A DNA stretch of 64,000 bases from Escherichia coli (GTDB lineage Bacteria; Pseudomonadota; Gammaproteobacteria; Enterobacterales; Enterobacteriaceae): assembly GCF_050920415.1 (NCBI RefSeq), contig NZ_CP169309.1, one strand, 5' to 3'. Within the stretch, counting starts at the first letter, position 1. Each line of letters starts with the position of its first letter. The notes beneath the pieces are model-generated. The model was not told the origin of the DNA and made no database searches. It worked only from the letters and a program-made list of their open reading frames with translations. Below are positions 13,996 through 19,942 of this stretch, piece after piece. Position numbers and translations under genes: made by a program.

Positions 13996-14001
13996 TTGAA
14001 T

Positions 14002-14028
14002 AACGGAGCCGAAAGGCTCCGTTTCTTT
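14002..14028. terminator. Rho-independent terminator between convergent fadE and ivy
   Basis: cggagcc-gaaa-ggctccg hairpin followed by T-rich run. Confidence 0.6.
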
Positions 14029-14037
14029 ATCCGCTAA

Positions 14038-14511
14038 TTATTTAAAATTAAAGCCATCCGGATGGTTTTCCAGGCTGCCGGTCAACGCCGCGAATAGCAC
14101 CGTTTTACCATCAATCGAAAGCGCATCATTCACATTCAACCAGGTGAGTTTCTCTTGCGAGGTTTTCTCATCAATGGTCGAGAACAGCCCCGTCATCTGA
14201 TTAGATTTCTCGGACCACATCACAGCGATACGTTGCGAGCCACAGTCATGCGGTTTGCACGCGCTCATCACCTGATACGTCTCATCTCCCAATGTCACGG
14301 TTTGTGCGGGGGTATAAGTACCGCCTTTCATCACCCAGGCTGGCAGCTTATGCCCTTGCACCATCTGACTAAATGCAGCGTTGGTGGTTTCGCCCTTTGC
14401 AAGGCTGCTAATGGTTAAATCATCCTGCGCCATTGCACTGGTGGCGATGACCAGAGCGGCGACTGTTGTTATTGCCTTAAACATCATTCCTCCCGAGCTT
14501 ATCCTGCCCAT
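14038..14511 (-). CDS. ivy: Inhibitor of vertebrate C-type lysozyme (Ivy)
   Basis: 157 aa, signal peptide, ...CKPHDCG... loop motif characteristic of Ivy. Confidence 0.9.
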   Translation of the reverse strand: MGRISSGGMMFKAITTVAALVIATSAMAQDDLTISSLAKGETTNAAFSQMVQGHKLPAWVMKGGTYTPAQTVTLGDETYQVMSACKPHDCGSQRIAVMWSEKSNQMTGLFSTIDEKTSQEKLTWLNVNDALSIDGKTVLFAALTGSLENHPDGFNFK

Positions 14512-14664
14512 GTTATTAACCTCCTAAAGCCTGGCGACAACACGATAATTTGCAAATCAGATATTTCCAATATCAGCATTTGTTATCAATTTATTCTGCG
14601 CTAAGGCAACTGCCTGATAAGGTGTTAAAGTTATAAAACCCTTCGCATAAAGGAGTTGTACACC

Positions 14665-15435
14665 GTGCCTGGTTTGAAGATTACGCTTTTGCAGCAACCA
14701 CTGGTGTGGATGGATGGTCTTGCCAACCTGCGCCATTTTGATCGTCAACTGGAAGGTATTACCGGGCGCGATGTGATCGTTCTACCGGAGATGTTTACCA
14801 GCGGCTTTGCCATGGAAGCGGCAGCTTCGTCGCTAGCACAAGATGACGTAGTGAACTGGATGACAGCTAAAGCGCAGCAGTGCAATGCGCTGATTGCAGG
14901 CAGTGTTGCATTACAAACGGAGTCTGGTTCGGTTAACCGCTTTTTGCTGGTTGAGCCGGGCGGCACGGTACATTTTTATGATAAGCGTCATCTGTTCCGA
15001 ATGGCAGATGAGCATCTGCATTATAAAGCGGGCAATGCGCGAGTGATTGTGGAATGGCGCGGCTGGCGTATTTTGCCGCTGGTGTGCTACGACCTGCGTT
15101 TTCCGGTGTGGTCGCGCAATCTCAACGATTATGACCTCGCCATCTACGTCGCCAACTGGCCTGCCCCACGCTCTCTGCACTGGCAGGCATTGCTGACAGC
15201 CCGCGCGATTGAGAATCAGGCGTATGTGGCGGGATGCAATCGCGTCGGCAGCGATGGCAACGGCTGCCATTATCGCGGTGACAGCCGGGTGATTAATCCA
15301 CAGGGCGAGATTATCGCTACTGCCGACGCGCATCAGGCAACGCGCATTGATGCGGAGCTGTCGATGGCGGTGTTAAGGGAATATCGCGAAAAGTTTCCGG
15401 CATGGCGGGATGCGGATGAGTTTAGGTTGTGGTGA
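14665..15435 (+). CDS. yafV: Nitrilase-superfamily omega-amidase YafV
   Basis: GTG start at 14665 preceded by [16 protein letters not shown]...; 771 bp as in K-12. Confidence 0.9.
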
Positions 15436-15484
15436 GTGGGGGTTGTGTTTAGGGCCGGGGAGAGTTGGGGTATGACTACGAAAG

Positions 15485-15690
15485 CCCGCTCTCCTGCGAC
15501 CACTTTTATCATAGGAGTGTGGAAGTGCTTTTCCATCAATCGCGATGACGTCTTTGTCATCTGAAGAATGACATTCACGCATCCGGTTAATAAAGCATTC
15601 GTGAAATTATACTGAACGGATACAAGACATAACTCTAATTATGGTGCCGTGAACAGGATTACCATTTTCAAAATTACGATATTATTTGCA
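15485..15690 (-). mobile_element. Internal fragment of an H-repeat (ISAs1-family) transposase gene (yafF-like remnant)
   Basis: About 85% identical over about 185 bp to 17423-17610; encodes ...[17 protein letters not shown]... on minus strand. Confidence 0.7.
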
Positions 15691-15706
15691 GTAATTATGT
15701 TATTAA

Positions 15707-16219
15707 TCATTGTGATATTTCCATCTCTGTGATTAATACCGGATACGCATTTAATTGCAGAGTTTGCACGAAATTATCGCAGATAACTGGCAATAACAAT
15801 AACCCATCAGCCCGCTGCTGTAATACCTCCATTCGTTCTACTGATTCAACATTAACAACCAAACCAAGGGCATTTAGCGATTTAAGGATCTCCAGATGTT
15901 CACTCATCCAGCGCAGAGAAAAAGGATCATCACCAATTATAAAAACAGGCCCCCAGCCGGTTAATAACTGGCGTTTCATTACGGAACCAGGATGAAGTCG
16001 AGTACATATTACAGGAAATACCCCCTGTTGCGATGGTTCCGATGATGTGGATAATTCAGAAATATTTTCCATTGTTAGTGAAGAATTAACATCCATTAAT
16101 AATGGTGAAACAACCTCACTTTCCTTGCTAGTAATGGCTGCACTAATCTGAGAGGAAAATAACAATATTATTACGTATAAACTCATTTTTAACATAACAA
16201 ATTCAATCCGTTTATTCAT
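15707..16219 (-). CDS. Hypothetical secreted or membrane protein (N-terminal hydrophobic signal); may correspond to the K-12 yafU/ykfM region
   Basis: 170-aa ORF in low-GC DNA, MSLYVIILLFSSQISAA signal-like segment; no recognisable domain. Confidence 0.45.
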   Translation of the reverse strand: MNKRIEFVMLKMSLYVIILLFSSQISAAITSKESEVVSPLLMDVNSSLTMENISELSTSSEPSQQGVFPVICTRLHPGSVMKRQLLTGWGPVFIIGDDPFSLRWMSEHLEILKSLNALGLVVNVESVERMEVLQQRADGLLLLPVICDNFVQTLQLNAYPVLITEMEISQ

Positions 16220-16285
16220 GTTATAGAATAATGATGCTATAAATCATCATTAATGTTCAATTATTTAATCACACAGTTTAAAAAA

Positions 16286-16789
16286 TCATTGACCAATGTG
16301 AATTGGCAATGTACCACTCAAGTTAAAATCACTGAATATTTTATCAATTTCTCTTGCAGTTTCTATATATTTAACCTCTTTCGTACTTGCATTATAAATA
16401 GCCCAAGCCTCGGGATGGGATGTTCCACCAAACCTTACAAAAAAACTTGATTTCATATTATTATATAAATTAACATCAGGAAAAGGATCTTCTCCAAAAT
16501 TAGTAGTATTGAATAATGAAAGTTCGTATCGCTTAGAAAATTCTATTGGTAGGATAGCTTCACTGCCATCAATAGCATTCATCCAGAGTTTGTTACCATT
16601 ATATTCCAACAATAATCTCTGTTTTGCATGTGTTTTATCTCGTTCTTTAACGACAGCGAATACCTTTTTAACAACCTGCTGTGCGGATGGTCCTATTGTA
16701 TTACCAAAAGATGGCAACCCGATTTTGCCATAAACACTCTCCTGAATGAAATAAATATCCGTTTTATCGGCCTCGACAATATCTACCAT
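16286..16789 (-). CDS. Hypothetical cytoplasmic protein
   Basis: 167-aa ORF, AT-rich, no signal peptide, no recognisable motif. Confidence 0.4.
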   Translation of the reverse strand: MVDIVEADKTDIYFIQESVYGKIGLPSFGNTIGPSAQQVVKKVFAVVKERDKTHAKQRLLLEYNGNKLWMNAIDGSEAILPIEFSKRYELSLFNTTNFGEDPFPDVNLYNNMKSSFFVRFGGTSHPEAWAIYNASTKEVKYIETAREIDKIFSDFNLSGTLPIHIGQ

Positions 16790-17101
16790 TTATCCCTCCA
16801 AACAAGACCTGACTCCAGGACAAGAGCATAGTGTGTAGTAAACACATCATGCTCTTGCCCTGACCATTGAAATAACAACTTTCGTTTGTTTACTGTACGC
16901 TGTCTAAATAGCTGCGTGGAATAAAGTTGCACTTTTTATCATCCCTTGTAGAGCAAGATTACGAAAGCCCGCCCCCGCAAGGGCTGACGCGAGGTAGTCT
17001 CTGTCCGCAGCTGCTTTTCACATCTTACATCTTGCCCCTGCCTTGAGTATCTTATCTTTCGTTAAAATATTAATAGCGATCTTCCGTATCCCTGAAAATA
17101 A

Positions 17102-17781
17102 TTATGCTGCATTTCCTCTTCTTATTTTGAAGTCGTCTTTATTCATTACCACTTCCAGATGCCAGTGCAATTTATTCTCCACTTGCCAGTGATTTCGGTT
17201 CGCTGTGGCGAACTTCTCTGCGGTTAAATCAGCAGAAATGCTATAATATCTGACCGTCATTTCGGGATTTTTCTTTTGTTCTGCTATTATTGAGCGAAAT
17301 GAGACTGCCATGCATAATTTCTTCAGCCCTTTCCATTCAAACGTAAAATCAATAAATTCATCAGAGACATGCAAACAATATGAAGACGGATTTTAATGAC
17401 ATAAGTTGCTCCCTTGTGACGAGTTTTATCATAAGAGTGCCGGAGCGTTTTTCCATCAATTGCAATGACGTCTTTATCATCTGAAGAATGACATTCACGC
17501 ATCCGGTTAATAAAGCATTCGTGAAATTTTGCAGGACTGATACATGATACAACTCTGGCAATAGTATCGTGAACAGGAATACCATTTTCAAAATCACCAT
17601 ATTGCTTCAAAAAATCGAGATGAGTTTCCCCGAAATCCTCTATATCTTCCCAGCCTTCTGCACCCGAAATAACGGCGCAAATAGTCAACAGTAGAATATC
17701 CGATAATTTATGCTCCACTTTCCAGGCTTGTCTGTAATCGGGGATAATAGAAATATGTTCCATCAATTTTTTAAGTTCCAT
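17102..17781 (-). pseudogene. H-repeat (ISAs1-family) transposase pseudogene with internal deletion, frameshift and 3' truncation
   Basis: ORF 17323-17781 starts [28 protein letters not shown]...; ORF 17102-17374 carries ...[24 protein letters not shown]...; middle of protein missing. Confidence 0.8.
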
Positions 17782-17987
17782 TTTGTTCTCCTTAATTATG
17801 TAAGGAGTATTTGATCATGTATAAGCAATAAAAAACAGCTTCAGGTAATGAGGAATATCTCAATTTTTAAACATAAAATGCGAATTATTTAGTACAAAAA
17901 AGCAGCGTTAAGTGAGTAGGCCACCGGAACCTCCCCGACAGCCTCTCGCAGAACCGTACGTGAAACTCTCGCTTCATACGGCTCCCG

Positions 17988-18605
17988 TCAGGCAAACGCG
18001 CTTCCTGGTCCTGCTTTCCAGTGGGCAAACAACTCCGGCTTCTCTTTTGACAGCCTTTCCATTAGCTGACACGCCTTCGTCTTTCTATACCGCAGGGTTT
18101 TATATTTCTTTCTCGCCCACGCAATCAGCGTCAGATTAATATATCTGCATACTTTCTTCATCGCTGATTTGTGGTATCTCGCGTAATAATTCAGCCACCC
18201 CGATATTATCGGATTCAGCCACTTCGCAATATCTTCGAGACTCATCTCCACCCTGCGTCTGATCCACAGTTTCCTGAGTTTTCCAATCATGCCTTTCTGC
18301 GCACGGTTACTCGCCGCCGGGCTGAAACTCGTAAAGAGGTTTCCCCGCCGGTGGTTACGTGCTCTTCGCGCTCTGAACGTATACCCCAGAAAATCAAACT
18401 GCACTGTTTCATGGTTCGCCTGTCGTTCGCTGTCTTTGCAGTAAACTACTTTCGTTTTCTCCGGATGTAATTCCAGTCCACATTCCTGAAAACGTTTTGC
18501 CAGCTTATTCAGTAATTCCTCTGCCTGTTGTTTACTGCCACAATGAATTAATCCATCATCTGCATAACGGCACAGGGAATTTCCGGATAATGTAACGTCA
18601 GCCAT
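17988..18605 (-). pseudogene. Group II intron reverse transcriptase/maturase, C-terminal fragment in a different frame
   Basis: Contains RYADDGLIHC active-site motif and maturase/X-domain-like tail; overlaps upstream fragment. Confidence 0.8.
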
Positions 18606-19504
18606 TTATCAAACACATAGTGCAGAAATAAATTCGCCAGTACCGGGCTGATGACTCCACCCTGTGGCGTACCTTTATTTCTTTCCTTCAGTGTTCCATC
18701 CGGCATCTGCACCGGCGCTGTCAGCCACCGGCGAATAGACAGTCTTACCCATTTATCCGCACAATGTTTATCTACTGCCCTGAGTAATAAATCGTGGGAG
18801 ATATTATCGAATAACCCTTTAATATCAAACTCAAGACACCAGTCGTATTGCCAGCAACGTTTTCTGGTGACTGCTATTGCATCCAGCGCTGATTTTCCAT
18901 GCCGGTATCCGTATGAATCATTCAGGAAATAACGCTCCACTAATGGTTCAAACGTTACCAGCACCGTCATCTGCGCTATTCGATCGCTTACTGTCGGTAT
19001 TCCTAAAAGTCTTTTGCTGCCATCCTTCTTCGGAATTTCCACCGCACGCACTGGCGGCGGCATCCAGCTTCCCGACGATAACCTGTTCCAGATTTTGTAC
19101 AGATTTCCTTTCAGATCCCGCTCAAAATCTTTCAGCGTCTGGTTATCCACTCCGGCAGCTCCGGCATTCGCCTTTATCCGCCGGTACGCTTCCACCACAT
19201 GCAATTTACTGACCTGAAACGGTTTTGTCTGTTCACACACAGCCTCCTCCTGCCTACAGTTGGGCTGTGATGCAGACTGCCCGACGCTGTCCCTTCGCTC
19301 CACGTTCATTACAAACGCTTCCTCACTACTACGAACAGCTCTGCCCCGGTTTCGCACATCGATACTCTCATACTCATAATTTCGGTTATTTGTATTTCTC
19401 TCTTGAAATTGCGACGACCGGTTCCCGTAGTTCCTGCAAAGAGCCTGATACAGCGTCATGCCTGCTATACACCGGACACCATTCACGCAGCATTCGGAAT
19501 TCAC
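18548..19504 (-). pseudogene. Group II intron reverse transcriptase/maturase, N-terminal fragment
   Basis: RT domain motifs (...GIPTVSDRIAQ..., ...GTPQGGVISPVLANLFL...); frame breaks before the YADD motif. Confidence 0.8.
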
Positions 19505-19843
19505 CCGTAAATTAATCCCGGCGGTATCACGAAACCTCCGGTTTTGATGTCACTTAGGACTAACGACGTTTCAACACAGGTTCGGGTTTACTCATCTCAC
19601 TGTATCTCACATAGGATCAGATCTCGTCTGATCGTTCCCCCTGCGCTCACTACCATGGCTCTTTACCACAGCAGCCGGGGTTGTTTGGGACCGACTTCCG
19701 ACAGCAGATCCCGGTGGGCCTGCCACCATCTCTTCACAAGCTTATGCTTATTACATGCAAAACGTCCCGTTTTGCATCTTTGTGCCTACGGCACACGATG
19801 ATCTTTCCCTGATTACTTGACCTTTCCCTGGGAGTACAGAGTG

Positions 19844-19890
19844 AAGTTTCCGGCATGGCGGGATGCGGATGGGTTTGAACTGGGGTGATT
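19844..19890 (+). repeat. Imperfect second copy of the yafV 3' end (41 of 47 nt identical to 15389-15435)
   Basis: gtgaagtttccggcatggcgggatgcggatgggtttgaactggggtga would encode [19 protein letters not shown], against [18 protein letters not shown] at the end of yafV. Confidence 0.7.
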
Positions 19891-19942
19891 AGGCACTACA
19901 TGTCTACATTTTCCCGGTCTCCAACCCCTCAATCTTATAAAC

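Follow-up and report, generated by a model that had tools for sequence, protein, structure and literature searches.

A full-length copy of the class D group II intron E.c.I9 in an H-repeat end near yafV of Escherichia coli, with a frameshift that is probably a base-calling artefact

Introduction

Two class D group II introns, E.c.I2 and E.c.I9, are known to home into the Rhs-associated insertion sequences (ISs) ISEc1-5 (Leclercq and Cordaux; PMC3522654). E.c.I9, so named in the Zimmerly database, has been recorded at full length in strain ATCC 8739 (NC_010468, 2411599-2413485) and as 193-bp fragments in many other strains (PMC3522654). Here we analyse a 64,000-nucleotide (nt) stretch of an Escherichia coli genome (NCBI RefSeq assembly GCF_050920415.1, contig NZ_CP169309.1; hereinafter the window), the minus strand of which carries between positions 17911 and 19796 a group II intron whose reverse transcriptase (RT) gene is broken by a single missing base. 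Our reading, which we hold with a probability of roughly 0.7, is that this is a full-length copy of E.c.I9 with a mobility of the kind described for the intron RmInt1, and that the missing base, which falls in a Dcm methylation site, most likely reflects a consensus base-calling error of the assembly.

By its published description, the second of the two introns, E.c.I2, which lies at 269264-271154 in E. coli UMN026, is likewise a class D element of about 1.89 kb that uses the same Rhs-associated IS target, differing in its insertion position within the IS (PMC3522654). The experimentally studied members of class D, namely RmInt1, RmInt2, and Sr.md.I1 of Sinorhizobium, resemble the intron described here in having an IIB-type ribozyme, an RT and X domain protein of about 420-440 amino acids (aa) that lacks the D and En domains and carries PxLF[V/A]HW close to its C-terminus, and a habit of homing into ISs, with RmInt2 also using IS terminal repeats; they differ from it in the phylum of the host and in the IS that is targeted. 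A more distant point of comparison is Ll.LtrB of Lactococcus, which shares the six-domain ribozyme, the RT/maturase encoded within domain IV, and retrohoming by reverse splicing; however, it belongs to class IIA/ML and uses its D and En domains to cleave the target and prime cDNA synthesis, whereas E.c.I9 has neither domain. We found no report of splicing or retrohoming experiments with E.c.I9 in the literature.

Results

Anatomy and identity of the intron

The preliminary description of this DNA, made from its letters and open reading frames (ORFs), had proposed a group II intron on the minus strand and suggested a covariance-model search for domains V and VI as a check. An Rfam scan of window positions 14000-24000 bore this out with two strong, full-length matches, both on that strand. 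The conserved domain I core of the ribozyme (19610-19727) was recovered by RF01999 (group-II-D1D4-2) with 93.1 bits over the full model length (E = 1.8e-18; gathering score 36), and domains V and VI (17911-17986) by RF00029 with 62.8 bits, again over the full length and above the gathering score of 40. Folding of 17911-17986 yielded the 34-nt catalytic hairpin of domain V with its 2-nt bulge and the helix of domain VI (about 17913-17948), the single unpaired adenosine of which, A17917, stands 6 nt from the 3′ end of the intron as the bulged branch point. In both the RF00029 alignment and the fold the domain V hairpin occupies 17951-17984; a hairpin of this kind had been noticed earlier and is indeed present, its position having been given 20 nt too high, at about 17971-18004.

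The minus-strand intron sequence opens with GTGTGCCGTAGG at 19796, where GTGTG (19796-19792) agrees with the GUGYG 5′ end of group II introns, and closes at 17911 with ...CCTACTCACT, giving 1886 nt here and 1887 nt in intact copies. These borders were established by comparing seven intron copies, from six genomes and the window: the sequence common to independent loci begins with CAGGG, 15 nt upstream of GTGTG, and resumes directly after ...CCTACTCACT. At empty H-repeat (H-rpt) sites CAGGGAAAGATCACG is joined without interruption to TAACGCTGC, a junction that more than 1000 complete E. coli genomes carry without a single mismatch across 82 nt, the uninterrupted sequence running from CAGGGAAAGATCACG into TAACGCTGCTTTTTTGTAC... 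at the unoccupied ends. Because these unoccupied H-repeat ends are known, the intron borders are exact; they leave the previously proposed 5′ end at 19796 as it was and move the 3′ end from 17915 to 17911.

The two minus-strand ORFs that had been taken for the halves of an intron-encoded protein (IEP), 18548-19504 and 17988-18605, are both present, and in the sequence as given the protein is split just before its YADD motif. They match positions 3-204 and 206-353 of TIGR04416, the NCBIfam model of group II RT/maturases; as these are consecutive parts of a single model, the ORFs are two halves of one protein, and the possibility that they derive from separate, unrelated proteins is excluded. 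Translation is annotated to start at the ATG at 19309, and the upstream part of the 318-aa first ORF is therefore non-coding. Accordingly delimited, the N-terminal frame (18548-19309) encodes RT domains 0-4 in 253 aa before a premature stop; the C-terminal frame (17988-18572) encodes YADD (18555-18566), RT domains 5-7, the X (maturase) domain, and the class D motif PELFAHW (18018-18038), and ends with a stop codon at 17988-17990. In the intact 440-aa orthologue Pfam recognizes RVT_1 (2e-41) and GIIM (3e-13) and finds no HNH/En domain, only about 30 aa lying beyond GIIM. This protein ends in ...KPELFAHWKAGPGSAFA, which matches the core of LX3AX3PXLF[V/A]HW, the C-terminal class D motif of RmInt1-type introns (PMC4615759). 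PELFAHW is an exact match; the upstream L...A positions read M/L...S (MERLSKEKPELFAHW), so that, in distinction to the Sinorhizobium introns, the N-terminal half of the motif is only approximate.

An RT with these features might in principle stand alone, as a retron, a DRT-type defence RT or a group II-like RT, with the RNA features arising by chance. The protein does weakly resemble the Drt3a, Drt2, and retron RT models, but these matches are sub-threshold and far under the cut-offs (77 vs 200 bits and similar), whereas TIGR04416 scores 427 bits with the intact orthologue against a cut-off of 300. Moreover, both Rfam intron models score well over their gathering thresholds, and the insertion is exact relative to the empty sites. 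On these grounds a free-standing RT was rejected, and we give it next to no credence.

Aligned end to end with the E.c.I9 of ATCC 8739, the window intron is 96.0% identical over 2117 aligned nt including flanks, with 67-70 differences in the 1887 nt of the intron. Introns have been assigned to a named reference at above 90% nucleotide identity (PMC3522654, Table S2); since 96% lies above that value, the window intron is, on sequence identity, E.c.I9, a class D element of structural IIB type already catalogued in E. coli. The preliminary description had the element type right and did not recognize E.c.I9 or its known homing site. Beyond overall identity, the two introns share a length of 1887 nt when intact, GTGTG...CACT ends, the architecture of a 440-aa protein, and a target position 15 nt in from the left end of an H-rpt/ISAs1 element; the widespread 193-nt 5′ fragment likewise matches intron positions 1-193. 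They differ by about 70 substitutions, which mark the window type as a distinct sub-lineage, 99-100% identical to copies in strains MFDS1022581, N96, and 2013C-4282. Further differences concern a domain I loop discussed below as exon-binding site 1 (EBS1; GAUGAU in ATCC 8739, CGUGAU in the window), the 10 nt that follow the insertion on its 3′ side (TAACGCTGCT in the window vs AGAAGTACAC), the locus (Rhs/nhoA there, yafV and a type VI secretion system (T6SS) here), and the 1-nt deletion in the window ORF. Between the two sub-lineages there are 54 nucleotide differences in the IEP ORF and just 25 amino-acid differences in its product, from which counts a rough dN/dS (the ratio of nonsynonymous to synonymous rates) of about 0.25 can be estimated, and the final 77 nt of the ribozyme hold one differing position; these comparisons are consistent with a family under selection for function. 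E.c.I9 was found in 81-82 of 5426 complete E. coli genomes, at 1-4 copies each, and RefSeq labels near-identical intact copies ltrA; the plasmid collection yielded no complete copy, its matches being the known 193-nt 5′ fragment and partial copies with a coverage of 77% or less. The intron has been described before, as have its class and its homing site, and the anatomy is as expected for class D.

The one-base frameshift

The two frames of the IEP meet at 18572-18574 (about 18573), where nearly all other copies read CCCTGGTG and the window reads CCCTGTG, one G of a Dcm site, CCTGG, being absent. Across the intron and its flanks (2011 nt), the orthologous copy of MFDS1022581 differs from the window in this one base: CCCTGGTGCCGT (…IPWCRYADD…) there corresponds to CCCTGTGCCGT here, and the orthologue encodes the intact 440-aa protein. 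An 81-nt probe carrying the deletion gave 91 matches in 81 genomes, 90 of which have the extra G. Apart from the window, the deletion was found in one copy only, a further E.c.I9 that the same MFDS1022581 assembly carries at its ybgA locus and annotates as a frameshifted ltrA pseudogene. Sites on either side of the deletion, intron positions 390, 649, and 1348, distinguish the ybgA copy from the window copy, which has the yafV-locus haplotype at all three; the same deletion therefore stands on two haplotypes. A search of about 15 billion proteins for exact matches found the truncated 253-aa product once, the 205-aa C-terminal ORF not at all, and the intact 440-aa protein on 11 contigs; in metagenomes, a pattern with N{0,1} that covers both alleles of the frameshift site gave 0 matches.

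The missing base belongs to CCTGG (CCAGG on the plus strand). An alignment of the whole window with MFDS1022581, with a mosaic VgrG segment excluded, yielded 28 differences. At nine of these the relative retains a GATC or CCWGG motif that the window has lost, and none shows the reverse, although the two motifs cover only 2.7% of positions (binomial p=3 × 10–8). Among the nine are deletions at GATC sites that break the istA and istB genes of an IS21 element and a change of CCTGG to CCTAG. Also among them is a CCAGG-to-CAGG deletion in the 23S rRNA gene of the window, of exactly the same type as that in the intron; the 23S gene has a 561-nt stretch with three indels, which none of 37,897 E. coli 23S copies from 5425 genomes matches exactly (best 99.6%). 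In the MFDS1022581 assembly, a non-orthologous rrl copy has one of these 23S indels too. Since the intron deletion and a 23S indel each recur in non-orthologous copies of that assembly, we suspect a systematic source, and the recurrences point to context-dependent consensus errors in both assemblies. Such errors have precedent in Enterobacteriaceae: with default models, Dcm motifs were the main source of Oxford Nanopore Technologies (ONT) consensus errors, accounting for about 70% of those in one enterobacterial genome (Wick et al.; PMC6591954). From these sequence comparisons we judge that the one-base frameshift is probably a consensus base-calling error; if so, the real element is intact and identical to its MFDS1022581 orthologue. 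The earlier view that the intron is probably immobile on its own hangs on this deletion and would lose its footing with it, the nearest orthologue being intact.

Several points weigh against an artefact. The deletion stands in the sequence as given, and it was judged from the assembled sequence; a GG-to-G slip is also plausible as a natural mutation. The Dam-site discrepancies are for the most part concentrated in a single IS21 copy, for which a divergent IS allele is conceivable, and disrupted intron ORFs are common among enterobacterial group II introns, as in E.c.I4 and E.c.I6 (PMC3522654). The same deletion in the second copy could, moreover, have arisen by short-patch gene conversion and not by a repeated error. 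The alternative is that the frameshift is real and the locus holds a non-autonomous E.c.I9 with an intact ribozyme and a 253-aa product lacking YADD, RT domains 5-7 and the X domain, able to splice or move only with the protein of an intact sibling supplied in trans, the allele having spread by gene conversion or trans-mobilisation. The identical deletion in the ybgA-locus ltrA pseudogene of MFDS1022581 fits this alternative, as do the three copies in that strain, at least one of them intact, and the documented complementation between IEPs of related class D introns (PMC4615759). It must, on the other hand, accommodate a deletion that falls in a Dcm motif within a window having highly significant motif-linked discrepancies and rRNA indels, a shared origin that would need a conversion tract of less than 700 nt between the flanking differences at 390, 649, and 1348, and a truncated product that no independent assembly encodes among the proteins searched. 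On balance we regard a real frameshift as rather unlikely, and the more specific proposal that it is real in both the yafV copy here and the ybgA copy of MFDS1022581, with short-patch gene conversion, or the trans-mobilisation of defective intron RNA by an intact sibling's protein, as the means of spread, as distinctly improbable.

It might also be asked whether the split is functional, with programmed frameshifting or transcriptional slippage restoring the protein or the two halves being translated separately. The sole feature in its favour is that the downstream ORF is ATG-initiated, at 18605. Against this, 90 of 91 copies encode one in-frame 440-aa protein, CCCTGTG contains no slippery heptamer or homopolymer, and the frame is broken within the polymerase palm, after RT domain 4 and before RT domain 5. 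Programmed frameshifting was rejected, and we consider a functional split in either form to be wholly improbable. A base-calling error remains our preferred account of the deletion.

Differences from the nearest strain are also seen elsewhere in the window. In the rRNA genes (60240-63900; 23S and 16S) there are 1-nt indels relative to the nearest strain at 60286, 60570, 60757 (CCAGG), 62170, 62373 (GATC), 62819, and 63895, and the 23S stretch without an exact E. coli match corresponds to 60240-60800; the pattern indicates consensus errors in the assembly. The IS21 element (istA/istB, 25800-27400) has window-specific 1-nt deletions or substitutions at GATC sites at 26172, 26568/26572, and 27375, which would frameshift both istA and istB; the relative for its part has no TA at 25800, where its annotation records a frameshift, and indel errors seem to be present in both assemblies. 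Finally, the VgrG region (27570-29127) is mosaic: the window sequence matches two separate VgrG copies of the nearest strain, which is about 9.8 kb longer here (an extra VgrG, PAAR, a Tae4 effector, and IS2). This arrangement suggests recombination or collapse between vgrG paralogues.

Exon recognition

A complementarity scan identified a putative EBS1, 5′-CGUGAU-3′, at 19526-19531 in the loop (UUUCGUGAUA) exposed by a domain I hairpin at 19517-19545 (-11.6 kcal/mol). The hexamer is the exact complement, over 6 bp, of the canonical 5′ exon end AUCACG, which would serve as intron-binding site 1 (IBS1). Among the copies the loop occurs as CGUGAU, CAUGAU or GAUGAU and the exon end as ...ACG or ...ATC; CGUGAU pairs perfectly with ACG and GAUGAU with ATC, and the assignment of EBS1 is supported by the way in which loop and exon alleles complement each other in pairs. 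The pairing is nevertheless not strict, for several copies occupy the non-matching exon allele. The window copy is one of these, its EBS1 pairing having C.C at -1 and U.G at -2. A convincing EBS2 was not found in a scan for complementarity of at least 5 bp, with at most one G.U, to the canonical exon positions -7 to -20.

Target site and genomic setting

The intron lies 15 nt into the left end of an ISAs1-family H-repeat, in the orientation of the transposase and 129 nt upstream of its ATG; in all seven copies examined it is found 15 nt inside the IS end and upstream of the ISAs1 transposase. On the minus strand, the inter-locus homology that starts at CAGGG delimits a 5′ exon (19797-19811) made up of the 15 nt at the very tip of the ISAs1/H-rpt left end (CAGGGAAAGATCATC); it includes the putative IBS1, and its last two bases are TC here, CG being commoner. 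The 3′ exon (17018-17910) is the remainder of the element, which, according to the ORFs and the RefSeq annotation of the identical orthologue, consists of the 129-nt leader and a degenerate transposase ORF. The latter is a pseudogene at 17018-17781, with its ATG at 17781, a frameshift, and an internal stop. The setting between this H-repeat transposase remnant and a duplicated yafV end (19844-19876) is as first described. It had also been supposed that splicing decides whether the host sequence is interrupted at the RNA level; however, the host sequence is the non-coding tip of a dead IS and not a functional gene. As the intron sits in the non-coding end of an IS whose transposase is already frameshifted, it makes little difference to the host whether the intron splices or not.

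In FDAARGOS_144 the orthologous site at the yafV locus is unoccupied, and the gene order is the same: Tle1 effector, ISAs1 pseudogene, two small ORFs, ISAs1 fragment, and yafV. The duplication of the yafV 3′ end is direct, 33 nt long and 97% identical, with 19844-19876 matching 15391-15423. These repeats flank a 4.4-kb block comprising an ISAs1 fragment, an ‘integrating conjugative element protein’, a hypothetical ORF, the ISAs1 pseudogene, and the intron, and the block minus the intron is also found in FDAARGOS_144. The 10 nt just 3′ of the insertion (window 17901-17910) occur among copies in unrelated versions, either TAACGCTGCT or AGAAGTACAC/AGGAGTACAC, the latter forming an AGTACA…TGTACT inverted repeat. 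No empty site was found that pairs the …ATC 5′ exon with the TAACGCTGCT 3′ exon, the best match being 96.5%; for this reason the flanks of the window copy look chimeric. A promoter scan gave only weak 9/12 matches, none of them informative.

The locus adjoins a T6SS Tle1 effector module near yafV. The Tle1-like phospholipase gene (19943-22162, minus strand) contains, in its N-terminal part, a homopolymer at 21996-22002 that is 7 nt long here and 6 in the relative; the difference shifts the apparent start of the effector ORF and alters its apparent length, which is annotated as 683 aa in the relative and is 739 aa, with a TTG start codon, here. Directly upstream of it, at 22026-23673, are three tandem DUF3304 paralogues (about 86-88% DNA identity), which are presumably immunity-type lipoproteins.

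Discussion

The closest experimentally studied relatives suggest how E.c.I9 might move. Reasoning by homology to RmInt1-type class D introns, we infer that the ribozyme would be excised from a read-through transcript with the aid of its own RT/maturase, and that the excised RNA and the protein would form a ribonucleoprotein able to reverse-splice into the terminal 15-nt region of ISAs1/H-repeat elements. Base pairing between EBS1 and IBS1 would be the main guide to the target. Since the protein lacks a DNA endonuclease domain, cDNA synthesis would be primed at the replication fork, preferably on the lagging-strand template.

What the window adds is the correct identification of a known element together with a pseudogene call that is probably spurious. 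The methodological lesson is that frameshifts at GATC or CCWGG motifs in this window, including those of ltrA, the IS21 istA/istB and the rRNA genes, should not be taken as pseudogenisation without read-level support, and equal caution is due with other frameshift-based findings from the same window.

The biological weight of the locus is small, given that E.c.I9 and its H-repeat target are catalogued, the IS is dead, and intact copies are already annotated as ltrA. Were the deletion nevertheless real, the protein would stop after RT domain 4, without YADD, RT domains 5-7, the X domain or the class D tail, and the window copy could neither assist its own splicing nor reverse-transcribe. The ribozyme would be untouched, however, and a sibling protein could act in trans, so that ‘immobile on its own’ would hold and ‘inert’ would not. 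If this were true of both deleted copies, they would represent a natural non-autonomous group II intron that parasitises autonomous copies within one E. coli lineage.

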